Shown piece by piece: positions 5,321 to 40,400 of a DNA stretch of 42,198 nucleotides. The position numbers and the translations under genes were made by a program. The stretch covers positions 1 through 42,198 of the IMG/VR virus record IMGVR_UViG_3300045988_016154; one strand, written 5' to 3'. The notes beneath the pieces are model-generated. The model made no database searches and had not been told where the DNA came from. It worked only from the letters and a program-made list of their open reading frames with translations. The DNA is from a virus. Every line of letters starts with the position of its first letter. The stretch's first letter is position 1.

Positions 5321-5336
5321 GGTATCTCCTTTCGTT

Positions 5337-6203: not shown

Positions 6204-6221
6204 AGTGTCCTCCTCTGCTGG

Positions 6222-6617
6222 TTAGGCCAGCGGCTCCATATCTGCGGGTTCGGCCCGCGAATCCTCGGTTTTATCTTCTCGGCTTTCGCCGTTCCCGATG
6301 TAATAAATTTTGATGTTTTTGGGGTAGTTCCCGGCCAGCATCTCCATGCCCCGCCGAATTACCCCCCACTGTGCCCGGGCAACCTCCATATTTACCGGCT
6401 GAATCCGTACAGTGGCCTTCCCGGGTATCAGCTCCACCGTGGGTGAAGCTTCAAGCCCATAGTCATTGTCCAAATCCATAGCCAGCTGTGCCGCCGTATA
6501 GGTCAGCGCCGTGGCTGCTGCGCAGATCAGGTCCCTGCCGTATTCCGCACTGTTTGCGTGGCCGTACATATCCAGCCACAGCGCCCCGCCCATATCTCCA
6601 AAAGTCACGCGAATCAT
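6222..6617 (-). CDS. prp: Prp-type (YsxB/DUF464 family) cysteine protease, phage-encoded (131 aa)
   Basis: MIRVTF...LDMYGHANSAEYGRDLICAAATALTYTA shows the GHA...(D)(L/I)(V/I)CAA His/Cys pattern of ribosomal-processing protease Prp. It occupies the slot between portal and scaffold where a prohead protease normally sits. Confidence 0.75.
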   Translation of the reverse strand: MIRVTFGDMGGALWLDMYGHANSAEYGRDLICAAATALTYTAAQLAMDLDNDYGLEASPTVELIPGKATVRIQPVNMEVARAQWGVIRRGMEMLAGNYPKNIKIYYIGNGESREDKTEDSRAEPADMEPLA

Positions 6618-6634
6618 ACCGTGCCCCCCCTAGA

Positions 6635-23212: not shown

Positions 23213-23500
23213 ATGAAAGAGAAACTCATGTCCACCCTCGGTGTCTTCGGCCTCATCCTCTACTATGTCTACAGCCTGTTCACCGCCTTTTTCCCCCTCT
23301 GGTTCCTGAATCTGCCAACCTGGGCCTTTTTCCTCCTGGTCATTCTTTTCCAATTTGTGCCTATGCTTTGCCCAATCGCCTGGGTTGTCGGCCTCTTTTT
23401 CGTTATCAAGGCCCCGCAAACAACCTTGTCCCTGGTCTATTACGTTCTGTTCGCATTGATCGTGCTGAAAACCTTTATCGGCGTTTTTAAGAGTAGGTGA
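23213..23500 (+). CDS. Small polytopic membrane protein (95 aa)
   Basis: Three hydrophobic segments. RBS AAAGGAG. The stop overlaps the integrase start (GTGA). Confidence 0.7.
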   Translation: MKEKLMSTLGVFGLILYYVYSLFTAFFPLWFLNLPTWAFFLLVILFQFVPMLCPIAWVVGLFFVIKAPQTTLSLVYYVLFALIVLKTFIGVFKSR

Positions 23501-24660
23501 ACATTTTGCAGTGCATCAAATGTAAAAAGGACATCCCCCAGGATGCCCTTTTTTGCCCTTATTGCGGAAAGAAGCAGCAAGCCCAGCGCAAACGCCGCAA
23601 GCGTGCCAATGGCATGGGCACCGTCTACAAGCACCCCGGTTCCCGTACCAAGCCCTGGGAAGCCCAGAAAGCCGGAATGCACATCGGCTACTACGCCACC
23701 CGCTACGAAGCCGAACAGGCCCTTGCCCGTCTGGCCGATACCGCCGTCTCTGAGAGCCTGAACATGACGTTCCGCCAGGTCTACGAAAAGTGGCTCCCAA
23801 CCCATAGCCGCAGCCTCACCGATAGCGGCGTAGCCGGTTATGCCTTTGCCTATGCCCACTGTGAACCCCTCTACGATTTGGTATTCCGGAAACTCCGTGC
23901 CAGTGACTTTCAATCTGTAATCAACTCTATGGAATCAGAGGGACTTTCCAAGTCCTCATGTGAAAAGGTGGTCCAACTGTTCAGCCAGCTCTCCCAGTGG
24001 GCCATCCAGGAGGAGATCGCCCATACCAACTACGCAAAATTCGTCACAGTCGCCGCCCCCCAGAAGTCCACCAAGGAAACCTTTACCGAAGCACAGATCC
24101 AGTCCATCCAAACCGCCGCAGCTCCCGCCGCCGACTTAGCCCTCATCCTCATCTCCACCGGCTGCCGCCCTAACGAACTGTTTTCAGCCCTGATTGAAAA
24201 CTGCCACGAAAACTATTTTATCTCCGGCTCCAAAACCAAAGCCGGTAAAAACCGTGTCATCCCCCTAAGCCCCCTCGGCCTCCCTGCCTACCAGAATCTC
24301 CTGGCCGAAGCCCAAAAAACCGGAAGCCCCCGCCTCATAGACGGCTACCCCGGCAACCGAGAATACCGAAACTTTGCAAAGCGGGACTGGAAGCAGCTCA
24401 TGGAGGAAATCGGCACCGACCTCTCCCCCTATTCCTGCCGCCATACCTTCGCCACCCTGGCCATCAAATCCGGCATAAAACCCGAACAGCTTAAACAAAT
24501 CATCGGCCACGCCAGCTACGCAACCACCGTAGATTTCTACAACCACACCAACGCCCAAGAGCTGGTAGCCGCCGCCCAAAAAATCACGGTTACAGTCACG
24601 TTACAGTCACAGAAAACCGCAGATAAAAAATCTACCTCAAAAAGTTCGGAAAACAAATAA
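23497..24660 (+). CDS. int: Tyrosine integrase with N-terminal zinc ribbon and arm-binding region (387 aa)
   Basis: CIKCKKDIPQDALFCPYCGKK. Catalytic-domain pattern ...GCRPNELF..., SCRHTFATLA, IIGHASYATTVDFYNH. Confidence 0.9.
   Translation: MNILQCIKCKKDIPQDALFCPYCGKKQQAQRKRRKRANGMGTVYKHPGSRTKPWEAQKAGMHIGYYATRYEAEQALARLADTAVSESLNMTFRQVYEKWLPTHSRSLTDSGVAGYAFAYAHCEPLYDLVFRKLRASDFQSVINSMESEGLSKSSCEKVVQLFSQLSQWAIQEEIAHTNYAKFVTVAAPQKSTKETFTEAQIQSIQTAAAPAADLALILISTGCRPNELFSALIENCHENYFISGSKTKAGKNRVIPLSPLGLPAYQNLLAEAQKTGSPRLIDGYPGNREYRNFAKRDWKQLMEEIGTDLSPYSCRHTFATLAIKSGIKPEQLKQIIGHASYATTVDFYNHTNAQELVAAAQKITVTVTLQSQKTADKKSTSKSSENK
24589..24610. repeat. Arm-type direct repeats, left (two tandem GTTACAGTCAC)
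   Basis: Tandem 11-mers at 24589-24599 and 24600-24610, inside the integrase 3' end. Confidence 0.6.
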
Positions 24661-24696: not shown

Positions 24697-24746
24697 GGTG
24701 ACCCGCCGGGGATTCGAACCCCGGACCCACTGCTTAAAAGGCAGTT
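24696..24746 (-). other. attP core: 3' 51 nt of a tRNA-Lys(UUU) (anticodon arm to CCA), not a complete tRNA gene
   Basis: Minus strand reads ACUGC CUUUUAA GCAGU GGGUC CGGGG UUCGAAU CCCCG GCGGGUC A CCA. No matching 5' acceptor strand or D arm is present; AT-rich DNA follows. Confidence 0.8.
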
Positions 24747-24853
24747 CAATGTATATTTTTATATGTATTTATCTATATAATAATTCATTTATTCGGTATT
24801 TTCCATATTTTAAACAGAAAAATATAATCGTATTTAATGAAGTATAAAGCAAA

Positions 24854-24876: not shown

Positions 24877-24900
24877 GGCCGGGAGCTATAGCCCCCGGCC
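24877..24900 (-). terminator. Hairpin ending the late/accessory unit
   Basis: GGCCGGG-(10 nt)-CCCGGCC, 8 nt after the last stop codon, followed by TTTGAC on the minus strand. Confidence 0.5.
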
Positions 24901-24907
24901 CCAGGTA

Positions 24908-25267
24908 TTACCGCATACCCTTCTGCTGCTCCATCCGGGTCAGAATCCTGTGCAGGTCGTTCTTGGTGTCCAGGTCGATGCCCTGGGAATCAACCAGTTC
25001 CCGCAGCCGGTCCACGGCGCTCCCGTAAGAGTAGCCGTCGTCTCTGGCATATCTGCCCATGGAATCCCGCCGGTTGGAATACCCGTCCTCCCGGCTGTAC
25101 CTCCGGGAATAATCCCGGCTGTAGCCCTGGTCCGTAATGCAGTCCAGCTTGCAGATCAGAGATGCAAGGTTCTTTGCCACCTCGACGCTTCCGCGGTCCA
25201 GGCGGTCCCCCATGCCCTCCAGCTCCTGCATAGCCGCGTCCCGCAGCTTGTATAACTTCTCGTGCAT
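24908..25267 (-). CDS. Accessory island gene F: hypothetical protein with a Tyr/Ser/Arg/Asp-rich centre (119 aa)
   Basis: RBS AGGAGGTGA. Contains ...GYSRDYSRRYSREDGYSNRRDSMGRYARDDGYSYG... between two helical ends. Confidence 0.7.
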   Translation of the reverse strand: MHEKLYKLRDAAMQELEGMGDRLDRGSVEVAKNLASLICKLDCITDQGYSRDYSRRYSREDGYSNRRDSMGRYARDDGYSYGSAVDRLRELVDSQGIDLDTKNDLHRILTRMEQQKGMR

Positions 25268-25278
25268 ATCGTCACCTC

Positions 25279-25713
25279 CTACGCTACGCGCTCAATCATC
25301 AGATTGGCGTTCGCCACACTGATGGCCTGAGCGGAAATGTTTCTGACTGCAAGGCTGGCGCAGCAGTCTCTGGGAACGTCCACAAACGCAGCCGTTGCCA
25401 CGTTAAAAGCGTTCTCAACCGCCGCCGGTGTCGCCGTGGCCGTGGTCTGCTGGATAGCCTCGCCACCCAGCGACAGCGCCACGCTGATGGCCTCAGCCGT
25501 TCCCCCTGCCGGTACGCTGATGTTGCCGATAAACAGAACCTTGTACCGTGCAAAATTGGAACAGCCGTTGCAAGCGCCACGCAGCGTCACCAGCCCGGCT
25601 CCTTTCCGGTGAACAACATACCCGCGATTGCACCCCACAGGGGTGTCGGTAAACAGCACGTTCTGTCCAGCCGCTACGTTCTGGGCAGCGTTCGCAGTAA
25701 GTTCAACCGCCAT
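25279..25713 (-). CDS. Accessory island gene E: BclA-C / BxpB-like (C1q/TNF-like jelly-roll) protein (144 aa)
   Basis: RBS GAGGGGG. Alternating beta-strand pattern ...GQNVLFTDTPVG...GLVTLRGA...YKVLFIGNISVPAGGTAEAISVALSLGGEAIQ...ASLAVRNIS...ANLMIERVA, like exosporium BclA C-terminal/BxpB proteins. The similarity is judged by eye. Confidence 0.65.
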   Translation of the reverse strand: MAVELTANAAQNVAAGQNVLFTDTPVGCNRGYVVHRKGAGLVTLRGACNGCSNFARYKVLFIGNISVPAGGTAEAISVALSLGGEAIQQTTATATPAAVENAFNVATAAFVDVPRDCCASLAVRNISAQAISVANANLMIERVA

Positions 25714-25724
25714 AAGCTACCCCC

Positions 25725-26438
25725 TCAGAAGCTGCCGCAGCTGCAAACGTTGTTGCAGCAGTACGGGTTCTGCACCTGATAGGAAGGCACAGGCGTGGGC
25801 CGAAGCGTGCTCACCAGATAATTGTTCTGTGCCTGCTGGGAAGCCGCCAGCCGCAGTGCCTGATTCTCCGCCTGGAGGTCCTGCATTCTGGTGCTGTTCA
25901 GGTAGTCGATGACCCGGTCGCCCACCTTGTCGATGGCGATCATGGTCGCGTTGTGCTGGGCCTGCATGTTGTAGTTTGTGTCGCAGAAACCGCGTTCAAT
26001 GGCCCGTCCCAGGCCGTTGTTGACCCCGGCGATCTCCTGCTTGATGTCGCAGCAGCAGTCAGAGAGTTTCTGGCCCACGCCGTTGACGGCGATCCGGGTC
26101 TCATACCCCTGCTGCATCTGGCCCACCTGCACGCCGTTGATCAGCTGCGCCTGGGTGTAGCCCAGGTCACACAGCCCGTTCTGGGTGTTGTCCAGTCTCC
26201 GCTCCAGCGAGTTGGTCGCGTCGGAGATCATCCGCTGCACCGTCGCAAAGTCGCTGGCCAGCACATAGTTGTCAGCAGCGCCGGAATTTCCGTTGCCGCC
26301 CCAACCGTTGCCGCCCCAGCCAACAAACGCGAACAGGAACAGGATAATGATCCACCATGCGCCGTTCCCGCCGAACATACCGTCGTTGTTTCTGTTGGTC
26401 AGCGCCACAACATCGGCAGGGCTCATCATATCGTTCAT
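25725..26438 (-). CDS. Accessory island gene D: single-pass membrane protein with Gly/Trp-rich juxtamembrane segment and Cys clusters (237 aa)
   Basis: RBS TAGGAGG. GAWWIIILFLFAFVGWGGNGWGGNGNSG. Internal CCC (SDCCCDIKQ). C-terminus QVQNPYCCNNVCSCGSF. Confidence 0.75.
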   Translation of the reverse strand: MNDMMSPADVVALTNRNNDGMFGGNGAWWIIILFLFAFVGWGGNGWGGNGNSGAADNYVLASDFATVQRMISDATNSLERRLDNTQNGLCDLGYTQAQLINGVQVGQMQQGYETRIAVNGVGQKLSDCCCDIKQEIAGVNNGLGRAIERGFCDTNYNMQAQHNATMIAIDKVGDRVIDYLNSTRMQDLQAENQALRLAASQQAQNNYLVSTLRPTPVPSYQVQNPYCCNNVCSCGSF

Positions 26439-26482
26439 ACTTTTTCCTCCTAAATAATATTATAAACCGTTGCGCACCCGGC

Positions 26483-26692
26483 TTATTTCAGAAGCCTCTG
26501 GAACTGCGTTGCCAGCCCCTGCAGCTGATTGAACTGCTGCTGCGTCATCTTTCCGGAGTTCAGCAGCTGCTGCACCTGCTGCTGCGGGTCTCCCTGGAAG
26601 TTCGCCCGGAACTGGTTGAACTGCTGGATCATGTTCCCGATGCCCCCCGGGGTAGGCGTGTTCCCGCCAAACTGCCGAAAAAGATCATTCAT
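26483..26692 (-). CDS. Accessory island gene C: small Gln-rich protein (69 aa)
   Basis: RBS CAGGAGGG. ATGAATGA overlap with gene B. MNDLFRQFGGNTPTPGGIGNMIQQFNQFRANFQGDPQQQVQQLLNSGKMTQQQFNQLQGLATQF. Confidence 0.7.
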   Translation of the reverse strand: MNDLFRQFGGNTPTPGGIGNMIQQFNQFRANFQGDPQQQVQQLLNSGKMTQQQFNQLQGLATQFQRLLK

Positions 26693-27029
26693 TGCTGTTC
26701 CCTCCTGTCAGCTCCGCCAGCCGCTTTTCGAATTCTTCTCTTGTCACAAAGTCCCCAGTCGGTGCTTCCGGCTGCTTTGCCTCCCGCATTTCCTCGTACC
26801 GGAATACCCGCAGCGGATTCGGGATGCCGCTGCCGTCCACGCTTTTGACGTAGAACTGCTTCTCCTCGCTGTCCATCATCCACACGGCGGCCCCAGGGGC
26901 CACAGGATAGGCTTTCGCCCCGGCCATGCCCTGCACCCAGACGATGTTGTTTCCCGCCCCCTGGGTCTGCTGGCTCTGCTGCGGCTGCCCGTATAGGAAC
27001 TGGTTCCCGCCCATACCGTAATTGAACAT
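26685..27029 (-). CDS. Accessory island gene B: protein with Gln-rich N-terminus and compact beta domain (114 aa)
   Basis: RBS AAGGTGA. YGQPQQSQQTQGAGNNIVWVQGMAGAKAYPVAPGAAVWMMDSEEKQFYVKSVDGSGIPNPLRVFRYEE. Confidence 0.7.
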   Translation of the reverse strand: MFNYGMGGNQFLYGQPQQSQQTQGAGNNIVWVQGMAGAKAYPVAPGAAVWMMDSEEKQFYVKSVDGSGIPNPLRVFRYEEMREAKQPEAPTGDFVTREEFEKRLAELTGGNSNE

Positions 27030-27031
27030 TT

Positions 27032-27412
27032 TCAGTCACCTTTCCTTTTCCAGAAATAAAGTGGTATCTCTCCGGAGCAGTCCCATGTGTCGTAGATGTC
27101 TCCGTCCTCCACCGCCACAACGTGATTCTTGAGCGTCAGCACGTACAGCCCCTTGGGATAGTCCCGGCAAAAGTCCGCCACGCTGTAGCAGTCCGGGCAG
27201 CTGTTGGGGATCATAAACCGCTCAAAGCCGTTCTTCCGCAGTATCGCGCCCCACACATTGTTGCTGGATGGCATGTCACACATATCCATTCCCGCGCATA
27301 CCAGCTGCAAATAGGCGTTCTCCCAGTCTGCACCGATGGCCTTGCACACAGCCCGCACCGCACAGTCGCCCACTCTGGCCGCCAAGGGGTTCGGGTTGAA
27401 CATCTTCCACAT
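27032..27412 (-). CDS. Accessory island gene A: predicted papain-fold Cys-His-Asp protein (126 aa)
   Basis: ORF 27032-27532 trimmed to ATG 27412 (AGGAGG 7 nt upstream). VGDCAVRAV near the N-terminus, and NHVVAVEDGDIYDTWD near the C-terminus. Confidence 0.7.
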   Translation of the reverse strand: MWKMFNPNPLAARVGDCAVRAVCKAIGADWENAYLQLVCAGMDMCDMPSSNNVWGAILRKNGFERFMIPNSCPDCYSVADFCRDYPKGLYVLTLKNHVVAVEDGDIYDTWDCSGEIPLYFWKRKGD

Positions 27413-27447
27413 GGCTTTCCCTCCTATGGCTCTATAATAACAGGAAA

Positions 27448-27479
27448 GCCGACAGGCAACCTCTCGATTACCTGTCGGC
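27448..27479. terminator. Strong hairpin insulating the lysis genes from the accessory island
   Basis: GCCGACAGG-(14 nt)-CCTGTCGGC. Followed by TTTTT on the plus strand and TTTCCTGTTATTAT on the minus strand. The stop codon of the sigma-like gene lies in the loop. Confidence 0.7.
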
Positions 27480-27722
27480 TTTTTCGCGTATTTTTCGCAC
27501 TGGCAGCTTGTCGCTGTAGGGCTGAACGGCATCGTACTTGCTTTTCAGCCTTGCGACAATCCTGTCAATTGCGGCAAGGGACATATTGTATTCGTGGCAC
27601 ATCTTCACGCGGCTCCATCCGGCGGCCCGTGCCCTGATGACGCGCTCCTCGTCTTCCGAAAGAGAAGCCAGGTCTATGAATTCGTCAAGCAGCACACGGT
27701 TCCACAGAACCGTCCGCGCCAT
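27468..27722 (-). CDS. Sigma-70 region-4 / LuxR-type HTH-only protein (84 aa)
   Basis: LSEDEERVIRARAAGWSRVKMCHEYNMSLAAIDRIVARLKSKY matches the region 4.2 HTH pattern. No region 2 is present. Confidence 0.7.
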   Translation of the reverse strand: MARTVLWNRVLLDEFIDLASLSEDEERVIRARAAGWSRVKMCHEYNMSLAAIDRIVARLKSKYDAVQPYSDKLPVRKIREKADR

Positions 27723-27990: not shown

Positions 27991-28290
27991 TTAATTATGC
28001 AGCGGAAGCTTCCGCACTTCCTCCATGACACGCTTCGCGGACCCGTTCCCGCCCGCAGCGGCATAGGGTTCATAAAGATATACTTCCAGATTTTCAAACT
28101 CGTCCTGCGTGATGTAGCCCCGCTCCACGTACTTCATGCCGAGGTACACAATGCGGTCGTGGGCAATACCCACCAGCAGCCGGGTATTTGCGCTTTTCTT
28201 CGTCCGGCGGGCCTCCAGATACCCCCAGAAGCCCGCCGAACCCAGCAGCGTTACCAGAATGGTAACGGCTGTTTTCAGCCATTCGTTCAA
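27991..28290 (-). CDS. Membrane-anchored lysis-cassette protein (99 aa from TTG 28290; ATG 28338 is an alternative start)
   Basis: N-terminal TM helix WLKTAVTILVTLLGSAGFWGYL, then ...HDRIVYLGMKYVERGYITQDEFENLEVYLYEPYAAAGGNGSAKRVMEEVRKLP. GGGGGAAG lies 6 nt upstream of the TTG. Confidence 0.6.
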   Translation of the reverse strand: MNEWLKTAVTILVTLLGSAGFWGYLEARRTKKSANTRLLVGIAHDRIVYLGMKYVERGYITQDEFENLEVYLYEPYAAAGGNGSAKRVMEEVRKLPLHN

Positions 28291-28303
28291 TTTCTTCTTC
28301 CCC

Positions 28304-28900
28304 CTAATTCCCGATATCCATATGCACATGCTGCGCATCGATGGCGTAGCAGTACACCACGTTTTTCTGCTGCCGCACGATGCTCAGCACCTCAGCCGCC
28401 GACAGCCCCGGGATGCGAAAATCCATAGCGTGCCCCAGCAGGTGCCGGGAGTTCCACACGCCCCCAACCTCTGCGTTGTGGGTCTTGCACCGCACCGTGC
28501 TCGTGGGAATCATGGGCTTTCCCGCCGCCTCCCGCACAGCGTCCGCCAGACGCATCAGCTTTTCCGCAGGCTCCACCGGGAACCCCCCGCACCGCCCGCA
28601 GGGACAGGCTATGTAGGGTTCGTCCCGGGTGAAGTATTTAATGCTGTCCCAAAACGTCCCCGTCTTGTCGGGTGGCTGACCGCTGCTAGGGACAGTATTG
28701 TCCTTTGCAAACCGTTCCTGCCACACAGCATCTTTCAGCGCCGCCTGGGTCTGCTCCCCGGCAATCCCGTCCACGCCCAGCCCCTCGGCCTGCTGAAAAC
28801 GCCGTACCGCCGCCTGGGTGTTGGCCCCGTCTGCCCCGTCCACGGCCCCGGGATTATACCCCAGGTACGTCAACAGGCTCTGTATTTGTTTGATTGTCAC
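28304..28900 (-). CDS. Endolysin: PG_binding_1 domain plus LAS/M15-type zinc peptidase (198 aa)
   Basis: GTG 28900 preceded by [54 protein letters not shown] (peptidoglycan-binding repeat). [10 protein letters not shown] ... HVHMD (zinc ligands). Confidence 0.85.
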
Positions 28901-31355
28901 TGTCGTCAACCTCCTCCAGTCCAATATCTTCCAAATCCTGTTGATAGATATAGTCCACAGTCATTGCTGTGGTATCTATCATATCCTGCTGCGTCTCGGC
29001 AAGCTGCTGCGTGGCCGCGCTCTGGGCCGCCTGAAGCTGCTGGATAATGCGGATGGGATAGGCCCGGCCTATCACAGCCACGCTGTCCGCATCCGTCATG
29101 ATGGTGTTGGTCTCGCCTTCCAGCGGCATGATGGGCCCGTTCCCCGTAGCCTGGAACGCCACCGGCTCGGCAAGCTTGTAAGCAATTTGCACCGGGGTTC
29201 CGGCTGCGGCCTGGGCGGCGAGGTAGGATTTCCAGGCATCTGTGTTCTCGGGGATTATATCGCCCCATCTCACCCGGAAGGCACTCCATACCAATGCGCA
29301 GCCCTTGCCTGTATTGTTGTTCGCCACATCATAATGTGGGTAATGGCTGCATATTTCGTTCCCAGATTTCGGCGAATCGTTGATTGCATCGACAATTTTC
29401 GGGGATACGTAATACCAGTCTCCTTTGTCGGCAGCAAGTCCGCCAATAGTCCACGCCTCGCTCCCGTCAAAGGTTGCCAGTCCCCATTTCTGTTCCCCCG
29501 CTCCCGTCACCGCATCCAAGCTGCCGCCGTAGATGGTAGACGGCAGCGCCAGAGCCAGCGTGTCGCCACGGTAGGGGGTGTAGGTGGTAGGCGGGGTGGT
29601 GCCGGGGACAAGTGCAAAGTTTTTTAAATCAGCCGATGTTTCATCCGGAGAGATACCCGCAGCAAGGCCCACCTGGAAATAAGCCGCGCCCTGTATCGTA
29701 AATGTTGTCACCTTGTGCGTACCGGACGGTTTGTACGGATATAGTAGTGTAGATTTATAGTAAGCATTGTAGGCTGTATCATAGCCAACCGTGTAGGGCA
29801 AAATAGATGCATCCACAATATTGCCGTTGGCATCATAGCCGCGCAGAAGAAAGCGTCCGTGATTTGCTGTATCAGCATCAATCTGAATAGTGTACGTTCC
29901 TGCGGGGTATTTTCTTGCGAGCAAAATATAACTAGCGCCCCAGCCAGATGTATCTACCACGTGGATGGTGCTACCATCTACCGTGCAGTCTTTGTTCTCG
30001 GCAACGCGGGATACATCCAGCAGGTTTACCCCGCACCGCTCTACGCTCACCGCATCCCGCCCGGAAATAGGCCGGATGTTCGCATAAGGCACAAACCCAA
30101 TATCAGTCGCGCCTTTTAGCAGGCACGGCTTTCCGGTGGTTTTGCTGTGCGTTCCGGAGCAAGCCAGAAAGCCCGAGACCTTTGTATCCTCTCTGAGCGT
30201 AAAGGTAGCAGAGCGGCAAACCTCGCTATGGGCAATGACTGTGCTGTCGTCGGCGCGGCTGACCGTCATCCTGTAGTTAGTCATCGCGCCGATGGTGTAG
30301 GTTCCGGCCGGGAGATCAAACGCGTCAAAATTAAAGTATCCGGTGCCGAGGCTCGTGCCGTCCGCAGTCACCGTGCCGTCCGCAGCCATAGTCCACGTGA
30401 TACCATTTGATACCTTTGTCGCCGGAAACAGGGCTGGGTTCAGCAAATTCGGCCCCCCGCCCGCCGGATACGGCTCGCCCTCTCCCGCCTGGGTCGGCTC
30501 CCACGATGCCACCACCCCCAGCGGATACCCCGCTACAGGCTCGCAGGTCACCGGGTTCCCGGTAACTTCCAGCGGCGGGCACAGCGTCTCGATGATCTTT
30601 CGGCTGCTCCACGGGTTCTCGGCACTGATAACAGCATCGTCAATCTGCGGCGCGTCCAGCCCGTCCTTGCCCGCAGGCCCGGGGTCGCCCTTCGCACCCT
30701 GTTCGCCGGGGTCTCCTTTGGGGCCGGTGGGGCCCGGCGCACCCTGGGGTCCGGTCTCACCTCTCAGCCCCCGCTCTCCTTGGGGCCCTTGAGGACCAAT
30801 CGGACCAGTCAAGCCCGTCTTCCCGGGGTCTCCCTTATCGCCCTTTTCTCCCGGAGCGCCTTTGTCTCCCTTTTCACCCCGTGGCCCCTGCGGACCGGCA
30901 GGCCCGATAAAGCTTCCGTCCTCCAGCCCATGCTTCACGTAGCGGTAGATTTTTTCCGCGTCCTCCGCAGCCCGTTTCGCCGACGCGGCATCCGCTGCCA
31001 CAGCGTCCCCAAAGGCCTTCTCCGCAGCCGGTACACTTCCAGGCTTGCCCAGCGATTTCCTCACCGTTACCGTGTATGGCCTGCTGTGCTTGGTCTGTCC
31101 TTCCGCGCTGCCCACCAGCTGCGCAAAGCCCGCTCCGGGCTTCTCCGTGTCTGCCAGGGAGACGGTCCAGATCAGGTCCCCGTCAGCCTCTTCAAGCGGC
31201 ACGTTGTAAGGCCGTTTGTCGCCCCGCCGCAGGTAGTGCAGCGCCCACTTGAAGTCCGAATCCGGATTTTCAAAATAGACCTGGGTAACGTTCTCGTCGC
31301 CCTCGTAAAAAATATCAATATTTCCGTTTGCATCCGGTTTCACCGGAATGATCAT
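28854..31355 (-). CDS. Collagen-like tail fibre / receptor-binding protein (833 aa)
   Basis: 27 uninterrupted G-X-Y triplets (aa 151-232) between an N-terminal anchor domain and a ~600-aa beta-rich C-terminal part. Confidence 0.85.
30660..30905 (-). repeat. Collagen-type G-X-Y coding repeat (27 triplets)
   Basis: [82 protein letters not shown]. Confidence 0.9.
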
Positions 31356-31442: not shown

Positions 31443-34400
31443 TTACCTCCAGGGCAGCTTCCGCAGCACGCTCTTTCTCGCCTTGGGGTATTCCGCCTGG
31501 AACAGGGCATCCTTCTGTTCCGCGCTGATGGGCATCGAATCAATGTACTCAATAACCTGTTCCTGCTTCGTGATATCCTCTTTCCCGTCGCCGTCCTCGT
31601 CAATGCTGGACAACTTCGAAACAGCCCGGATATAGCTGTCGTAGGTGTCCGCGGAGATTCCCGCCGGGTGGATGGTTTCGGCGTAGTCCAGATATCTCGC
31701 ATTGCTCCAGCTGATTTCGTCCCCCAGCTCCATCTCCGTATCCCACTGCAGAATCAGGTCGTCCAGCTCCTCATCCTCGGCAATGTCCGCCGCGGTAAGC
31801 ACCTTCCGCACCTGTGCCTCCGTCAGCTCTCCTGCAGCGTAGCCATCCTTGGCGTCGCTCTTGACATTGCTCTGGAAGGTCTTCAGCGCGTCCGATTCCG
31901 CCTCCTGTCGGGTCAGCTTCCCGTCCGCCTCCTGATTCCGGTCCGCCTGATAGCGGATCAGCTCCTTTTGCACGTCCCCGGCATATCCCAGACCGTTGGC
32001 GGCGGCGTTGACGTATTCGGAATAGTCGTACAGCTTTTCCGGAGGGCTTTCCTTGCCGCTCTGGGTCTTCTCCTTCATGCTGTTGGCCTTCTGGTTGATG
32101 GCCTTGATTACCTGATCCTGGGTGTAGTGCCCATCGGCCACGATTTCCCGGATGATAGCCACCCGCTTCGGCGTGTTCCCGTCGATGGCGTACTGTGCCG
32201 CCGTCTTGATTCTGGGGTCATTCTCCCGCAGACCCTTTAAGAGGGCGCTTTCGTACTTCTTCTCGTCCCCGAACAGGGCCTTCAGCCGTCTGGCAAGCAC
32301 ATCCTTCCCCTGGGTGATGGCCTTGTACAGCTGGTCGCTGCTGCTCTCGTCAGCCTTCCAGCTGAGGATCGGGAAGTTCTTCCGTGCGCTGTCCTTCATG
32401 GCCTTCAGCACGGTGTCGGCGTTCATCTCCGCCCCGTTGCTGGGGTTTCTTGCCGTATTGATAACTGCCTCCACGTCCCGCACAACGTTCTTCAGCGGCA
32501 GGCCCATAACCGTTCCAACCATCCACGCGTTGTCCAGCCATGCGGTACGCACCTTCTTTTTCCACGCATCCTTCTTCTCATCGCTCCACTCATCGTCATA
32601 CTTTCCGTACAGTGTCGTGATTTTCTTCAGCGCCGTTATCAGGTCAGAGGCAAGGCTCATGTCCGTCCGCTCGATGCTGTAGCCCAGAAGCAGGTTGTTG
32701 ATGTCCGACAGAACCGGGATGTAGGTCAGCGGATTGAGGGAATCCACGGTCTCCCCCGCAAGACTTGCCATGTATTTCTCCCAGTAAGTCTTGTCGTCGT
32801 CGTCATCTCTGGCCGCGTATACCACCGATGCCAGCGCCGCGTTCAGCACTGTCGCCACGGCCACACTGCTCAGAACCTTTCCCGCCATGCGCTTGTCGCC
32901 TCTGGCGAACTTCCGCACCGCGTCCTCCACCATGTTGGCCGTGGTGGTAGGCTCCGCCATGAAGGCCGTGGCCATGCTCATAAGCCCGCTCTTGGAACGC
33001 ATATTGGCGCTTCTTGAGAACACGGAATCATAAACCTGTGTCCGCGTAATGGTGTCCGTGAACAGCTCTCCGGCCTTTTGCAGAAGGGCCTCGCCCCTCA
33101 GCCCCGGGTTCTGGGCCGCCGTCTTCCGCTTCGCCGCCTCCCAGATGCCGCACCATGTCACCTGATCCGCCATCTCCGGCAGCCACCCGGAAAATTTATC
33201 CACCTTGTCCGTGATCTTCCCCCAGGTGCTGAGCCCGTTTCGCCCGATGATGTATTCCAGGGTGCTTCTGCCCATGTCCACGTCAAACCGGCCCATTTCC
33301 TTCAGGCCCGCCACAGCCGCGTATTTTTTTAGCTGCTTCCAGGTTTCGGCAAACTTCTTGCCCTCTACCTTGCTGCCGATAAAATACTTTGGTTCAATGT
33401 AGGCCAGTGCTCTGCCGACGGCGCTGGGCTGCTGAATGGCCACGGACAGGGAAGCGGAAACCGCCGCCTTCTTGAAGCCGCTCAGCATGGCTTTGCTCAC
33501 CGTCTCCCTGGGGTCTGCCCGCAGGCCGCCGTTCAGGTCTTTCAGGAACTGGTCGATGTAGTTCACCGCTCCCTTTCCCGCCGTCTTCTGGATCAGCTGC
33601 CGCACGCCCATGGTGCTCCTCACCGTGCCGTCGCCCTTCTGGTTCCAGTTGTACACCCGGTAGAAGTCCTCCATAGGCAGCGTGAAGGAATGGTACATGC
33701 TCATGTCGCTCACGTGCTCTGCCCAGGTCTCCGTCAGGGTGCTCAGCTCAATGGCGTTGTTTGCCTTCGGGGTCAGGGCCTTGGTGAATCCCTTGGTTTT
33801 CAGCTTGTTCCCGGGGTTGTCCTGCTGCGCCCGCACCCGCTCGGAGAAAACGTCGCTGGATTTCAGCGGCCAGTAGGTTTCCTCTCCGAACTTCTTAATG
33901 CCGTACAGCGCCATGTTCACCTCGTCGCCCTTGGCGCCCATGATCTTCGCCAGATACTGCTGCATCTCAAAGGCGAATTGCCGCTGCTCCTTGGTCAGGC
34001 TTCCTGCAATGGCATCAATGGTTTCATCCGTCAGCGTATAGGCGTTGGCATCGTTGTAGGTGGTCTCTCTGGTAACCCCCAGCGGTCCCTTGGTGAATCG
34101 TTTGGTGTTCTCTCCCAGCACAATGCCGCCCTTCGTCAGGTGCTCCCGTGCCTGGGGCCGCAGGCTGTAGGCGTACAGGCTCATAAGCTCGTCCAGGCTC
34201 AGCTGGAATTTCTGCCCGTTCGCCGCCGTGAACTCCTTCAGCTCGTTCAGATCCCACTTGCTGAAGCCGTTCTTTTCCGCAGATTCCAGGAAAAAGTTCC
34301 GCGCTTCCGACACATCCCGATAGAACGTATCCTCGCCCTTGCGCAGATTGTCGTACAGCTCGCTCATCACCGCGCTGCCGATTCGCTCAAAGGCGTATAC

Positions 34401-37400
34401 CGGCTTCTCATTGTTCCAGAAGAATTGGTCAATGTTTCTGCCTATTGCCGTCTGATTGGGGTTTTTCTTCTTCATCAGGCTCAGCTCAGTGGTTGCCCGC
34501 TTCACCATTTCATCGATCCGCGCATTCTTCCCCGCCACAAATGCCTTGTTGGCATTCCTTATGGTGGTCAGCAGCGCCGTGTAGCTGTCTCTCACGGCCT
34601 TGAGCTGCTGCAAGGAAAGATTCCGGTATTCCGTGTCGCCGATCTGCTCCATGGTGTTCTGGATCAGAGCCTCAATGTTGCTGTCGTACAGGCTGTCCCC
34701 CTGGGTTTCCAGCTTGTGGTATTGCTCTTGCAGTTCAGCCAGCGCCGCCTTCATGCTGCTGTCCTTGCCGGTCAGGTTCTGGATCTTGCGGTTCAGGTCT
34801 GCGATCTTGTCCCCGTTGGCGGAAGGATTCTTTTCCAGCTCCCGCAGCCGGTAGGCGTATTCCGCCAGCCTGTCCGCGTTCTGCGCCGCCTTGCTGTCTC
34901 CAATCACGCCGTTAATGGCCCGCAGAGCCATGGCAACGCTGCTCTGCAATCCCTGGGGCACATGGGCCGTGTTGGTGGGCTGCAAGAGGTACTTGTTCAG
35001 CGTGTCGATGGTGTTTTGCAGCTTGTGCCGTTCCTCGGTCTTCTTCCGGCTCTCCACCTTCTGCGCCGCCGCTTCCCGCTGCTGCTTCACCTTGGCTTCC
35101 AATTTCCCAATGTCCTTTTCCAGCTCATACTGCTGCCGGAGGTTTTCATAAACCTGCTTTCGGGAAGTCTCCGCGTCCTTGTTGCCATCCGATTTTTCAT
35201 TGGCAAGCTCCTTTAGCATTCTGCGGAGCGTCGGGCTTTTTGCGTCCTTGTATTCCTCGCTTTTCAGAGCTTCAAAAAATTCATTTTGGTAGGCTGCTGT
35301 GTCGGTGCTGTAGGTAGTACGCAGTTTCGCCATCTGGCGGTCATAGCTCAATTTTATTTCGTTTCTTTCCACCTCCCAGAGTGCCGCGTTGGCCTTATCG
35401 ATAGCCGCCTGGGCAGCCTTCATAGCATCAATTGCCGCGGCGCCTCTTTTCTTCTCGGCTTCCAGATCATAGGCGTGGCTCTTCTCCATGGCCGCCGCTT
35501 CCGCGTCCCACTCCTTGCGCAGCTGCTTGATTTCCCTCTTGTGCTGCTCCTTCAGCGTTTCCAGCTCCTTTTTCATGTTGTCGGAAACGCTTTCCATAGG
35601 CTTTGCTTCCAGATACCCCATAAGGATCTTCTGCATCAGGTCTGCTTTCTGCTCTGCCCGGTAGTATTGGAACTCTGCCTCGCTGCTGCTCTCGGTGCTG
35701 TTCGCCCAGCTCACAATTTGGGCCAGCCCGTCCGGCATATTGCTCTCCGTCACATCCGCCCCGAACCTGTCCGGGAACTGTGCTGCCGCTTCCTGCCACA
35801 GCTGGTCAAGGCTGGTTTCCGCGTTCTGGTCAAGAATAATGCTGCCCTTGATTGCCCGCTTGAAGTCGTTCAGGCTGCCGTATGTGTATTCAATGTCCCC
35901 GATCTGGCCGTCGCTCAGGCTCACCCGCCGTTTTTTCAGGAAGTCGAGAATATCCTGGGCGTAGCCGTCCCGCTCTGCCTGATGGTGTTCCAGCAGCCAA
36001 TCCGCCAGCTCTCCGGCCCTGTCCTGCATGGTTTCGTAGCTCATGTCCTCCGTGCCCAGCGCCCGATAGAAGTCGTTCAGCAGCTTGCCAAACTCGCCTC
36101 CCTTGGCGTTCACGCTTTCCATAAGCCCCTTGCCGATGGCGTTCACGGAGCTCCTGTCCAGAATGTGCGCCTTGTTCCCGCTTTTCTGAACATTTACCAC
36201 CTGTTTCAGGTACTCCGTCTCCGCCTTGAGTTCCGCGTTCTTCTTCTCCAACCGCTCCACCTGCCGGGATTGGCTGTTGCGGTCAGAATACCGCACATTT
36301 CCCTTGACTTCTGTGCCCTGCTGTGGTAGAGTGTCCTCAGAGGAATTCCCATGTATGACGTCAGGCGATTTATTCGTAGTAACGTCGGTTGGGGATTCCT
36401 CCTTTTGCATTTGAAAATGTGCTGGTTGGATATCCACTACGTCATAAAATACCGCAGTACCTTTGTCTGTAATTCCAACAACAACCTCTGCGGAATACTG
36501 GTTTTCTCCCGCTTTAATAAGAACTCTCCCATGGTCAAAATCCACAAAATTGTCCGTCCTGGGGTGCTTCAGTTTTCCGTCCCGCGCCCAATCCGTTGTG
36601 GCAATAACAACGTCATCAATTGCACTCGCTGTGCGCATCTTGTCTGCGAACAACTGTGGTGCTTTCTTAGAAAGCATTTCGGAATAATCCGAAGCTGCAA
36701 ATTCGCGGCGACTAACCCTGTTGACGTTTCTGGTAACGCCGTCCACCACAATTCCGTCACTGAATTTTTTCAGAGCTTCCTTTGCCGCAGCCTGAACCTT
36801 CTTTTTGGTCTGGTTGTTCCACTGCGTCAAATCAATATTGCTCAGAATGTCTTCATCAACCACAGCCACAGTTTTGCCGTCTGTAGTCCCCCGCAGCGAA
36901 TACCTCACGCCCTCCCGGGCGTTCTTTTTTTGCCCGTCCTGCAGCTGGTAGTTCTCCCCAGCCTCCGCTACCGCCTCGGCCCAGGCCTGGGCAATTTCCG
37001 TGTTGTCCTGCACCGCCCGCTTGAGCATCCGGCCAATGTCACTGTCCGGGTCACTGTCCTTATAGGCGTTTCGCAGCTTCTCCACAAGCCCTGTGAAAAA
37101 GTCCTTGATCTTCTGCCACAGCGTCCTGTCCTGCTCATAGATTTGCTGGGATAGCCGGTTGGCCGCGTCCGTGTCCGTCAGGATCGTCTCGCTCATCTCG
37201 GCAATGGTCTCGTCGTAGGCGATTTCCTGCAATTCCGTCTCGGAAAGCCCCTTGTATTCCTCCATCTCCGAAAGCCGCGCCATCTGCCGTGCAATCAGAG
37301 AATCATAACTGATGCCCTTGTTCTCCGCTGCCGCAATAATCATCTGCGCATAGGCTTCGTATTTGGCAGGGGAGTAGTCCTTGATAAAGTGTGTCGTCTC

Positions 37401-40400
37401 GTGGGCCAGCGCGTAGGCCACAGCACCCTGCCCGTTGTCGCCCGCGTTCAGGTCAATGGCAATGCTGCCGTCTGCCTTTCGGTAAACGCCATTTGGCTTC
37501 CCGGCCTTCCGCTCTGCCTCTGTGCTGGCGTATACCTCTACGTGCAGCCCAGCCGCCGCCAGCGCCTTGGCCGCTGCCATGCCGGTCTGCTGCTGCTTGT
37601 TCAGGCTTCGGATGCTCTTGGCGCTCTCCTGCATGGTAACGCCGCTCTCCCGCGTCCCGGCCTTTCCACTGTCGATCAGCGCTTCCTGCGCCTGCACCTT
37701 TGCCGCCCGCCGCTGCTTTCCGGCCTCCCAGGCGGCTCTCCGCTGGGTCTCCGGCAGCTTTGCAGCGTCCGAATATCCCGGGGTATCCTCAAATTTCACC
37801 CCGTTCATGCCCCGGTAATAGGCGTTCCGGATAGCCCGTGCATACGCCGCGCTGCTCAGCCCGCTGTCGTCAATGCCGCTCAGCAGGCTTCTGGCCGTCT
37901 CCGTGTCCGTCTGCATATTGCTGATGGCCGCGTAAACCGCAGCCTCTCCGCTGTTGCCGTAGGAAACGTCACTGGCCGCGATTTCCTGCCCGTCGTCCGT
38001 ATTCAGGTACAGAACCCCGTTCTCCACCTTGGCAATGGGTTCACTGGCAAGGATGTTAATGGGCTCGCTGTCGCTCTTTCTGAATGCCTGCCCGGAGTTG
38101 TCGCTGTCAAATTCCGCCTTTGTCTCCGGCGCAATGCCCAGCACACTGCCCTGCACATTTCCGATGGTTCGCATGGAGGCCTCCACACTTGGCTTTGCGT
38201 TCTCCTGCAAGGTCTCCTTGCCGCCCACGCTGTTCAGGATTTCCTGGGTCAGCTTCTCCCCGCCGATCATGCGCATATAGGCCTTGTCTCCCGGCAGCAT
38301 AGCCGTGCCGTCGTAGACCCTTGTCAGCACATTCAGCGCGTGCTTCTTGTTCTGAATGCCCCGCTGCCCTTCCAGGTACTTTTCGGCCGCCTTTCGGAAT
38401 TCTGCCGTCTCCGCGCCTCTGGCTTCCCGCCCTGCCTGCTGAGCGATCTGAGTTGCCACCTTGCCGGTCCGGTAGGTGTTCCGGAAGGACTTGTCCCCGG
38501 CGCTTGCCTTGTTTGCCACCTCGGCCGCCGCCTTTTGCAGCTTGGCCCGCTTCTTCTCGTTGGTCAGGCTCTCCGCCTGCTCCTGCAGGTCCACAGCCCG
38601 CCCGTTTTCCAGTAACTGGCTTCCGACGGCGTAATTGCCCACGGTACTGTGAACACGATTCACGCCGCTGCTGAGCGCCTGTCCTCCTGCTGCCATAGCC
38701 CCCGCAGAGATTGCGCCGCCATATCCTGCCCAGAGAATATCCACGGCGTTGTCCTTCCATACCTGCTGCCTGGCTTTCTCCTCGGTCATGCCCTGGGCCA
38801 TATATTCCCGCACCGCCATGGAGTTTTCGCTGTTCTTGCCCATGTTGATGGCGTCCAGAATGATGTTGCCCATCTCCGTGAACATCTCTTCAGAACCTTC
38901 CACGCCCATCTGAATGGCAAGTTTCTTCACAAACTCCCCGGCAGTCTTGGCAGGGTTATCCAGAATATTCGTAAAAAACACTTCCATGGAAACGTCCTCA
39001 AACAGCGCTTCCAGGATGCCGGAGCCAATGGAGCCGATTGCAATCTGCGTCGGTGTCGCGCCCTTCAGTTCAAGCTCCTGCGCTCTCTGGGCAAAGGCTC
39101 CCATGCCCATGACGGTGGTATATCCGCCCACATGGAAATTAAACGGCCCCGCGGGGAGTGCCAATCCCTGCCCGAAGGTCATAGCCCCCGCCATGCTGTC
39201 CACGCCGGACATCAGTGCCTGGAATGTCTGGTTTGCCAGGTTTCCGGCCTTCGCCGCGAACTGCTCCCCGAATTTGTCCGCCAGTTTGCTTTCCGTCCAG
39301 TCTCCGATATCCTGCCCAACGCTGCCCCGGATGTAAGAGGCGTACCGCTGGAAGAACTGCATGGAGCTGTAGGGGTTCGTCCGTCCCGTGACCATATCCG
39401 TGGTCTTTCCCAGCGCCGCCGGAATGGCCCCCACAAGGTTTGCGCCAACGCTCACCGCGGTCAGCCCGGCTTTCTCCCAGCTGTTTGCGTTCTCAATGGA
39501 CTGTACTGTCTTCAACTCATTCCGCCGGGAAAGCTCAATGTACATATCGTCCAGGTACTGGTTGGCGGCCTCCTGTCCCCGTTGTCCCTTGATATAGTAG
39601 TAGGTCTCTATCTCGTTGTCCGTCAGGAGGTCCCAGTACCCGTCATTCCCCGCCATGACGATGTTATTCAGCTGTACGTTGGAACTGCTCACGGCATCCT
39701 GTTTCTGCTCCGGTGTCAGACTCCGCCACAGGCCCAGCCGGTCCTCCGCCGTAGGCTCTGTGTCTCTGGTATACTGGATCGTTCCGGGAACATAGTCCGC
39801 CCGCTGTGCCTGGGCATCCTGCGCCGCCTGTTCCTCATTCTTCTTGTTCTCCCAGTCTACAATACTTTCATATCCTGGCCCCGTATAGCTAGTGTCCGTC
39901 CCCTTGGCCGCCGCAGCGTCCCCGGCATACTGGTCGATCTTCCCCCAGGTAGCGTTGTAGGCATCCATTCGGTTCCTTGCCCCAAGGAGGCTGTTCTCCG
40001 CATCGGTCATTCGCTTTTTTGCAGCCTGCCATTTTTCGGTGAGGTCCTTGTCATATTCGTCAATGGTGAAACTCCTGTAGCGGTCATCCATAGTCCGCCA
40101 CTCGGAATCAACCCGCTCGAATTCCTTTTTCGCCGCCGTATACTCCGCCAGCGCCCTTTGACTTTCCTGCGCATCCTTCTGGCTCTGCTGCTTCCGGATC
40201 TCCCGGGCCTCACTGTCGCTCAGCCCCCAGCTGCCCGCAGAGTACCCAACGCCGAAGTTCCCGTACCCGCTTCTCTGCCGGTCATAGTCGTCGCTGTCCC
40301 GGAATTTGGAATAGTACCCGTTCAGCTCCTGCATTTGCTTGTTGTAGCCCAGAAGCATATTCCGGTAGTCCGTCATGCCGCTTTTGTCGCCCTCATAGGC

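Follow-up and report, generated by a model that had tools for sequence, protein, structure and literature searches.

A strictly ordered phage gene cassette with a TNF/C1q-type jelly-roll protein and a cysteine-rich membrane protein at the distal end of the late operon

Introduction

Among the described systems, the BxpB/ExsFA-BclA anchoring system of the exosporium in the Bacillus cereus group (PDB 8d02, 7r1m, 9h3d, 1wck) is one of those most similar to the gene cassette reported here, which is encoded by a virus (IMG/VR record IMGVR_UViG_3300045988_016154). The whole stretch of 42,198 nt (positions 1 to 42,198 of that record), designated the window below, was analyzed; the cassette consists of six minus-strand genes, g1 to g6, at positions 24,908 to 27,412. 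The g5 protein is, like BxpB and ExsFA, a stand-alone jelly roll of about 145 aa, and its neighbors add to the likeness, being Cys-rich and low-complexity proteins together with a putative small peptidase. BclA attaches to BxpB only once about 20 N-terminal residues have been removed proteolytically (bioRxiv 10.1101/2023.10.23.563578). However, the sequence identity to the exosporium proteins is only 13–18%, a collagen-like partner of g5 is missing, and an exosporium leader motif was not detected. In contrast to the exosporium proteins, g5 is a phage-encoded protein whose carriers also infect non-spore-forming and Gram-negative hosts, and g4, the presumed membrane-protein partner of g5, has no exosporium counterpart.

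The other components of the cassette recall further systems. The g4 protein resembles the two-component spanins (Rz/Rz1) in being anchored in the membrane at its N-terminus, in having a cysteine-containing helical domain and in its usual site beside the lysis genes. However, a lipoprotein partner in the outer membrane is missing, most of its carriers infect single-membrane Firmicutes and, unlike spanins, g4 retains 30% identity among phages whose hosts have unrelated envelopes. Josephin, the deubiquitinases of the herpesvirus-tegument type and Tae4 have the same Cys...His...Asp order as g1 and are among the best, though weak, PDB matches of its alpha+beta fold (TM score up to 0.48), whereas g1 belongs to no Pfam or NCBIfam family, has only 126 aa and contains an additional invariant C-P-x-C motif. 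Morons and superinfection exclusion genes (HK97 gp15, T4 Imm/Sp, lactococcal Sie2009, TP-J34 Ltp) resemble the cassette in their site at a module boundary near the attachment site, in a membrane protein with a single transmembrane (TM) segment, and in the flanking terminator and promoter-like signals. Yet these are single, fast-evolving and sporadic genes, whereas the cassette is a collinear set of six to seven genes with a very conserved g5 that is also present in a phage reported to be virulent and on a 127-kb contig. To HK97 gp15, T4 Imm/Sp, Sie2009 and Ltp, the cassette showed no similarity in sequence.

The region upstream of the cassette can be compared with the lambda Q/PR'/tR' switch and with the small late activators of Firmicutes phages (RinA/ArpU, and Alt of TP901-1), since the gene of a small DNA-binding regulator, repeated boxes and an intrinsic terminator lie in front of the genes that would be controlled. 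In contrast to Q, RinA and ArpU, to which the searches made revealed no homology, the putative regulator of the cassette is a sigma-region-4-like protein of 70–84 aa. Furthermore, unlike these switches, the arrangement is located at the end of the late operon and precedes an accessory cassette of six to seven genes rather than structural genes.

A published description of the cassette was not found in the literature on the PHROG families, on the cultured carrier phages, or on phage BclA/BxpB/TNF-like proteins. In gut and rumen phages, its families belong to the more frequent ones of unknown function, and their membership in one ordered module, with a regulation that is presumably its own, makes the seven orphan families testable together. 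Cultured carriers exist, namely Butyrivibrio virus Ceridwen, several Clostridium perfringens phages (g2–g4 and g7) and the Bacteroides phage C3_41T2LP (g4).

Results and discussion

A collinear cassette in about 180 loci

The cassette was found in collinear order in about 180 loci, about 70 of which were retrieved with g5 of the window, and its carriers include hundreds of gut and rumen phage genomes. An IMG/VR scan with the window g5 yielded 73 loci, nearly all with the order lysin-(TM protein)-holin-HTH-g1-g2-g3-g4-g5-g6-g7 (HTH, helix-turn-helix protein). Scans with g4 of Ceridwen and a genome scan with g5 added 110 further loci, 43 with g1–g7 and 24 with g1–g6 in order, and very few depart from this order. 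Ceridwen and Dulem virus 33 have g1–g6 in the same order as the window, followed by a seventh gene, g7, which is present in most relatives and missing from the window and its two closest relatives. The g3 gene was detected in 64 of the 73 loci found via the window g5, in 19 of 30 genome loci and in 63 of 80 rumen loci. The features of the window are as follows (all but the integrase on the minus strand):

27032–27412, minus: g1, 126 aa, papain-fold-like (phrog_3754, E 7e-30)
26685–27029, minus: g2, 114 aa, Gln/Pro/Tyr-rich N-terminus and beta-domain (phrog_21718, E 6e-22)
26483–26692, minus: g3, 69 aa, Gln-rich, helical (phrog_22984, E 3e-19)
25725–26438, minus: g4, 237 aa, one transmembrane segment (phrog_16490, E 6e-26)
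25279–25713, minus: g5, 144 aa, stand-alone TNF/C1q-type jelly roll (phrog_20016, E 2e-47)
24908–25267, minus: g6, 119 aa, helical ends and a Tyr/Ser/Arg/Asp/Gly-rich center (no PHROG match)
27468–27722, minus: hth84, 84-aa helix-turn-helix protein similar to sigma-70 region 4, directly upstream of the cassette
27445–27500, minus: direct repeats and a 9-bp G+C-rich hairpin with a U-poor tail, before g1
26459–26482, minus: intergenic element between g3 and g4, with a GTGCGCA core in a short inverted repeat followed by TATAAT
24877–24900, minus: terminal hairpin after g6, based on fold energy, preceding the A+T-rich attachment region
24700–24747, minus: attachment-site core similar to a tmRNA/tRNA 3'-end, based on the Rfam tmRNA model
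23497–24660, plus: tyrosine integrase, adjoining the attachment-site core

All six open reading frames (ORFs) of the original prediction are present, each has a GGAGG-type ribosome-binding site 6–10 nt 5' of the gene, and homologues of all six are found elsewhere in unchanged order. The junctions from g1 to g6 are +2, −8, +44, +11 and +11 nt. The five PHROG matches range from E 3e-19 to 2e-47, and all of them carry the label "unknown function". Searches of Pfam, NCBIfam and PADLOC with g1–g6, g7 and the neighboring proteins of the crAss-like and C. perfringens phages gave nothing above noise; specifically, neither g1–g6 nor g7 matched a PADLOC model of anti-phage defence at E ≤ 0.1. Searches of the PDB by sequence (g1, g4, g5) or by profile (g2, g6) were likewise devoid of significant matches. 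The view that no described system fits the six genes thus held for Pfam, NCBIfam, PADLOC, PDB sequences and the literature. No signal peptide was seen when the sequences of g1, g2, g3, g5 and g6 were read directly.

The original prediction had described an accessory island in the classic position of a moron. An island or moron particular to this prophage was not supported: the G+C content of the cassette (0.60) is that of the structural genes (0.55–0.63), and the co-occurrence across loci is that of six families traveling as an ordered module, not of a one-off island. Judged from gene order and composition, the cassette is a widespread, vertically conserved, strictly ordered and compositionally native module at the distal end of the late/lysis operon. 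Its position is the same in temperate phages, in one phage reported to be virulent and on one 127-kb contig, which also encodes ClpP and PhoH. The gene downstream of it varies, being an integrase in some loci, XRE regulators in others and an SNF2 helicase in 10 loci. The adjacency to the attachment site, a second claim about the locus, therefore stands for part of the loci: the integrase/attachment site is directly downstream in the window, in locus L014 and in 15 other loci, but not on the 127-kb contig, in the loci followed by SNF2, or in Ceridwen, an integrase-less phage that is virulent according to its authors (PMC7372960).

Subsets of the cassette also occur. Some loci contain g4-g5-g6 without g1–g3, and the C. 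perfringens phages have g2-g3-g4-[Cys-rich beta protein]-...-g7, without g1 and g5. In these C. perfringens phages and in C3_41T2LP, the cassette genes lie amid early recombination genes. The genome scan with g5 gave matches only in metagenome bins, and the taxa of these bins were mutually inconsistent.

Homing-endonuclease genes of the HNH/I-HmuI type were observed in or beside the cassette, between g3 and g4 (Dulem virus 33), between g5 and g6 (Ceridwen), and just upstream of g4 (C3_41T2LP). Their positions are 4413–4964 in L003, 6449–7243 in L002, 3604–4185 in L075, 4270–4890 in L275, and near 8700–8900 in L007, L008 and L013.

The jelly-roll protein g5

Structure prediction with AlphaFold2 and subsequent Foldseek searches covered g1 and g5, and for these two proteins the folds suspected earlier were recovered, TNF/C1q-type for g5 and, by weak matches, papain-like for g1. 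The g5 model (pLDDT 81.5, pTM 0.78) matched the C-terminal domain of F-BclA with E 6e-8 and a TM score of 0.71, and BxpB with a TM score of 0.73, in line with the anticipated similarity to BclA-C/BxpB. Further PDB matches were ExsFA, BclA, EDA, 4-1BBL and C1q. In the comparisons with 9h38, 7r1m, 8d02 and 1wck (E 6e-8 to 4e-6, TM score 0.64–0.73), the ten-strand TNF-like jelly-roll fold was found, at 13–18% sequence identity in the structural alignments. By sequence, g5 matched no PDB entry at E ≤ 10 and, apart from noise, no Pfam or NCBIfam family at E ≤ 1, including the curated BclA, ExsF and C1q families. The nearest structures in BFVD are stand-alone proteins of 130–145 aa from uncultured gut phages (TM score 0.8–0.9), which are labeled Sipho-, Myo- and Podoviridae.

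Given its fold class, g5 is expected to form stable homotrimers, and because it lacks a signal peptide, it would assemble in the cytoplasm, like BxpB/ExsFA. It contains no collagen-like repeats, and the single collagen-like protein of the window is the tail fiber; in L075, the cassette co-occurs with a tail fiber that lacks collagen repeats.

The g5 gene is the most conserved one of the cassette. Clusters at 90% identity number 936 in the clade of the window and 5477 in a second clade, and g5 is 78–97% identical across the 120 listed of the 936 clusters. Where g5 is about 81–83% identical, the values are about 51% for g4, 38% for g2 and 50% for the lysin. Such strong conservation would be expected of an assembly under tight constraint rather than of an effector in an arms race.

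The cysteine-rich membrane protein g4

The g4 protein has one hydrophobic segment flanked by Gly/Trp-rich stretches, a helical domain that is rich in Asn, Gln, Ala and Gly, poor in Lys and contains an invariant CCC, and a Pro-rich C-terminus with a conserved SQxxQ ... P ... P motif and a Cys cluster. The invariant residues are W29, W41-G42, C90, C128–130, S200-Q201, Q204, P216, P225 and C232. As for g2, g3 and g6, the features originally described for g4 can be read directly in the sequence.

This protein is the most widespread component of the cassette, with 1461 representatives at 50% identity. Among the 150 listed of these 1461, most have about 200–330 aa, the shorter ones match the query only partly, and none is fused to a further domain. 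The g4 profile matched a homologue of the crAss-like Steigviridae with E 2e-59 and one of the C. perfringens phages with E 2e-48, and more than 588 crAss-type stretches of IMG/VR match g4. Further carriers are C3_41T2LP, a cultured phage of Bacteroides uniformis, and viruses with a predicted assignment to Methanomassiliicoccales. In GenBank, the crAss-type homologues are labeled "spike protein/glycoprotein".

A small beta-rich protein with cysteines is encoded beside g4 in every lineage examined. In the crAss-type loci that were inspected, L004 (cr116_1, 4432–7407), L275 (C3_41T2LP, 4989–8234) and L111–L190, g4 is followed by a beta-rich protein of 136–149 aa, a beta-plus-coiled-coil protein of 168–179 aa and an Arg/Asp/Glu/Tyr-rich protein of 74–82 aa. 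Small HExxH proteins, numbering one or two, also belong to this conserved set, and in C3_41T2LP one of them bears the annotation PolyVal metallopeptidase. In layout, the set parallels the cassette. As a potential outer-membrane lipoprotein partner of g4, no ORF with a lipoprotein signal was found in or beside the cassette.

The closest relative of the window, L006, has a g4 that is 99% identical, in which a TGA at about 6360–6370 stands in place of a TGG, namely the second codon of the conserved Trp-Trp with which the membrane segment begins. This g4 is therefore a pseudogene, or its sequence contains an error.

The putative enzyme g1 and the low-complexity proteins g2, g3 and g6

A longer ORF of g1 reaches 27532; because 946 homologues have a length of about 126 aa, the start giving 126 aa was taken and that at 27532 was left unused. 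In 36 sequences with a mean column identity of 60%, C17, H97 and D108 are invariant, and so are the cysteines and the proline of C72-P-x-C75. The AlphaFold2 model has a pLDDT of 94.5. Its best PDB match is Josephin-2 (probability 0.77, E 0.07), and with TM scores of up to 0.48 the similarity is weak; other neighbors are tegument-like deubiquitinases, Tae4, TssM and PaTox, the best matches overall having E 0.07–1. Together with the invariant Cys/His/Asp, these papain-fold enzymes as weak best matches are in keeping with the papain-like character that had been suspected, and g1 is a putative papain-fold cysteine peptidase, amidase or transglutaminase-type protein. The alternative that g1 resembles the C39 bacteriocin leader peptidases, which have double-glycine substrates, and cleaves g2, g3 and g4 at [FM]GG|N was rejected: the [FM]GGN motif occurs in the g2, g3 and g4 of the window but is absent from g2 and g3 of Ceridwen, and no C39 model was matched.

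Homologues of g1 also exist without the rest of the cassette, in Tsamsa-like Bacillus phages and Geobacillus phage GBK2 (35–42% identity) and in Lak megaphages (about 31%). In the Tsamsa-like phages, e.g., Bacillus phage Izhevsk, the lone g1 is found beside a Ser/Thr kinase gene and an Ocr-like anti-restriction gene, and in GBK2 it precedes a recombinase gene. These contexts suggest that the papain-fold g1 family may have an independent, possibly early, role.

In g2, the N-terminus is rich in Gln, Pro and Tyr, a beta-domain comprises about 50 aa, and the C-terminus forms a short helix; its homologues are present in C. perfringens phages, and neither Pfam nor a profile search of the PDB gave a match. 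The center of g6 bears a conserved RRDSMGRY motif, and its homologues come after g5 in Ceridwen, in Dulem virus 33 and in most loci. For g6, PHROG, Pfam and PDB (profile) searches were all negative.

The putative regulator gene, the terminator and the g3-g4 element

The cassette was predicted to be a separate, terminator-insulated unit bounded by two hairpins. Both hairpins are indeed present. That at 27448–27479 has a fold energy of −30.5 kcal/mol (z = −7.2; none of 200 shuffles was as stable) and overlaps the stop codon of hth84, and that at 24877–24900 has about −24 kcal/mol (z = −4.2) and is followed by UUU only. The U-tails of both are weak in the window, and relatives have a canonical terminator with a T-run at the same position. 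Among 134 distinct regions upstream of g1 homologues, 101 contain a G+C-rich hairpin with a T-run right after the regulator gene.

In the window, the direct repeats GTGCGAAAAA / TACGCGAAAAA at 27481–27500 precede the hairpin. More generally, two to four direct repeats at a spacing of about 11 nt precede it, the last of which overlaps its 5' arm, and 5–50 nt separate the hairpin region from the g1 start codon. Exact 5-mer repeats with a spacing of 10–12 nt occur in 37% of the loci versus 10% of the shuffles. The hairpin stems differ completely between lineages, and the loops are kept within lineages (e.g., L007, L014, L068, L209, L219). A subset of loci has the boxes TTGCAC-N17-TTCATY, a promoter-like spacing, with the second hexamer in the hairpin loop.

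The regulator gene itself is located at the same position in 59 of the 73 close loci. The hth84 protein has weak, sub-threshold matches to sigma70-ECF region 4 (TIGR02937, E 0.008) and to a PHROG labeled "late transcriptional activator". In 76 rumen/genome loci, a protein of about 70 aa occupies its place, which matches Pfam Sigma70_r4 with 31.7 bits (cut-off 24.1); hhalign aligned the two families with a probability of 69% and E 4e-5. Probably, hth84 regulates the cassette. The region before g1 looks like a terminator with a read-through, antitermination or activator switch, acting as DNA or RNA, and the regulator-repeat-terminator arrangement may be an undescribed late transcription switch.

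The only real gap within the cassette is that between g3 and g4, with a median of 54 nt compared with −11 to +12 nt elsewhere. A TGCGCA/TGCACA core with covarying arms of at least 4 bp was found there in 32 of 42 distinct loci, versus 16% with swapped flanks; for this analysis, the arms were searched in each sequence separately, and the swapped flanks were the controls. The stem of the window itself has only 3 bp. The core is followed by a TATAAT/TATAAA-like box, and because the core and the box recur across the g3-g4 gaps of relatives, the TATAAT of the window (26459–26464, minus strand), which had been noticed previously in front of g4, belongs to a conserved element; a promoter scan found no −35 partner for it. 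Beyond the 6-bp core, a search for a palindrome around the GCGC center revealed no symmetry. RNAalifold gave no structure on the ungapped g3-g4 alignment, in which the stems are out of register, and neither the g3-g4 element nor the pre-g1 element matches an Rfam family. The g3-g4 element may combine an operator and a promoter or, alternatively, form a hairpin in the RNA.

Possible functions of the cassette

In all, the six genes appear as an accessory cassette of the phage that is located where two modules meet and makes use of known folds. From its layout, i.e., a sigma-70-region-4-like regulator followed by direct repeats and a terminator, g1-g2-g3, the internal element and g4-g5-g6, a mechanism can be proposed. 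Transcription would be gated apart from the late operon by the terminator before g1 and the element before g4, and the products would form an assembly at the cell membrane, on the side facing the cytoplasm. There, g4 would be a membrane-anchored, cysteine-rich helical scaffold, and g5 a very stable TNF/C1q-type trimer that docks on g4, possibly at its invariant Pro-rich/Cys C-terminus, a docking modeled on the BxpB/ExsFA trimers that hold partner peptides. The low-complexity proteins g2, g3 and g6 (Gln-rich or Tyr/Arg/Gly-rich) would act as matrix or linker components, and g1 would be a small papain-fold enzyme maturing or cross-linking one of the cassette proteins. Since the binding of a partner by BxpB needs a proteolytic cut, a role of g1 in maturation is plausible.

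We tentatively favor a function of the cassette in modifying the envelope or membrane of the infected cell during lytic growth, to which we assign somewhat less than even confidence. Candidate outputs of such a modification are the exclusion of other phages and the conditioning of the cell or its debris at release. Rather unlikely, in our estimate, is the specific version in which the products form an undescribed phage-built assembly with a g4 scaffold, g5 trimers, a low-complexity matrix and papain-fold processing or cross-linking, equipped with its own sigma-region-4-type switch and with a g4 core common to phages of Firmicutes, Bacteroidota and possibly methanogens. In effect, this assembly would be a coat- or exosporium-like layer, or a spike array, in the infected cell. 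If true, the membrane-anchored TNF-like array would be both a new structure built by tailed phages in their hosts and a new use of the exosporium BxpB fold.

Several points speak against a membrane-modifying role. Profile-profile comparisons of g2, g5, g6 and g7 with the neighbors of crAss-type g4 revealed no similarity (probabilities below 10%), so that the idea of one common complex is based on gene position and composition only. The fold match of g1 is weak (E 0.07), and because g1 is found alone elsewhere, it may not act on other cassette proteins. The topology of g4 is ambiguous (K+R 0.46 before versus 0.27 after the membrane segment), and its membrane segment would also be compatible with a virion protein. 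Lastly, the two hairpins of the window have poor U-tails.

A further possibility, which we judge to be unlikely, is that the cassette encodes a set of virion accessories. In this case, g5 trimers, possibly together with g2, g3 and g6, would decorate the capsid or tail or travel as cargo, and g4 would be a membrane-active ejection protein that enters the cell at infection. Like virion proteins, the cassette products lack signal peptides; the cassette comes after the late operon, and in the crAss-like cr116_1 the g4 cassette even lies between lysis genes and capsid genes. Fibers of phages and giant viruses can have TNF/C1q folds at their tips, the phage of the window has a collagen-like tail fiber (28854–31355), and small peptidases, i.e., g1 and the PolyVal-type metallopeptidase of the Bacteroides phage, would suit the maturation of packaged proteins. 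However, the cassette is never found within the head or tail blocks of the loci examined, from which the terminator divides it, and in C3_41T2LP and the C. perfringens phages it is surrounded by early recombination genes. A specific docking site is also hard to square with carriers of 35–127 kb plus crAss-like phages and with g5 relatives labeled Sipho-, Myo- and Podoviridae. The position after holin and endolysin, shared by the window, about 70 close loci, the rumen loci and the crAss-like cr116_1, would instead suit a lysis or release accessory, in which g4 acts with these two proteins as a membrane-disrupting or fusion-type protein (spanin- or class I fusion-like) and the other products modulate the timing or aid release. 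The layout of g4, a Gly-rich hydrophobic N-terminus followed by a long helical Cys domain, is like that of an i-spanin or fusion protein, and the label given by the GenBank annotators to the crAss homologues points in the same direction. Yet the single-membrane Firmicutes hosts offer no outer membrane to fuse, no cassette gene has a lipoprotein signal as would be expected of an o-spanin, and g4 is kept across hosts with very different envelopes. Moreover, C3_41T2LP and the C. perfringens phages do not have g4 next to their lysis genes, and a terminator sets the cassette apart from such genes; we therefore regard a lysis function as quite unlikely.

Alternatively, the genes might be independent small accessory genes, e.g., for anti-defence or host takeover, that travel together through shared ancestry. 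The lone g1 homologues with their Ser/Thr kinase, Ocr-like and recombinase neighbors, the subsets of the cassette (g4-g5-g6 without g1–g3; g2-g3-g4-...-g7 without g1 and g5) and the insertion of homing-endonuclease genes between cassette genes all agree with independence. It is nevertheless improbable in view of the strict order with overlapping or 3–12-nt junctions, which persists despite protein identities of 30–60% and differing flanks, of the common regulator and terminator architecture upstream, and of the lack of any PADLOC match. Very improbable, finally, is a lysogenic-conversion island that is expressed from the prophage and remodels the host cell, spore coat or exosporium, as the original prediction had considered. 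Such an island is suggested by the location as the last block before the attachment site/integrase in the window and many relatives, by the promoter-like element before g4 and by the resemblance of g5 to the exosporium proteins BxpB, ExsFA and BclA-CTD. Gln-, Tyr- and Cys-rich proteins together with a small GerE-like HTH regulator are also, we presume, reminiscent of spore-coat biology. On the other hand, no protein matched a spore-coat or exosporium family of Pfam, the base composition is that of the phage itself, and the genes keep their order from locus to locus instead of occurring sporadically. Butyrivibrio fibrisolvens, the host of Ceridwen, does not form spores, and g4 is encoded by crAss-like and Bacteroides phages and by the predicted archaeal viruses of Methanomassiliicoccales; spore-surface remodeling is therefore unlikely as a general function. 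The presence of the cassette in the integrase-less Ceridwen (PMC7372960) and on the 127-kb contig is also difficult to reconcile with lysogenic conversion.

Flanking genes and further observations

The cassette is flanked by the genes for a holin (Phage_holin_1), an endolysin (M15 and PG_binding), the collagen-like tail fiber and the tyrosine integrase. The attachment-site core matches positions 346–363 of the Rfam tmRNA model with E 0.006, which is under the gathering score, and ARAGORN found no complete tmRNA or tRNA gene at the attachment site. As the similarity of the core suggests, ssrA or a tRNA gene is the probable integration site of the phage.

The endolysin and holin genes enclose a further gene (27991–28338, minus strand; phrog_4105), which overlaps with each of them at its end and encodes 115 aa with a single membrane segment. 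Its product is kept in many relatives and is a probable extra component of the lysis cassette.

In three loci, L271–L273, which are contigs carrying P0324, the called genes fail to give the recorded proteins under code 11, and one of them holds stop codons. This mismatch could reflect stop-codon recoding in the 127-kb phage lineage, or a coordinate offset.

The tail fiber gene of the window (28854–31355, minus strand) encodes 833 aa with a long collagen-like Gly-X-Y region, and upstream of it a single ORF of 3087 aa extends over 31443–40706 (minus strand).

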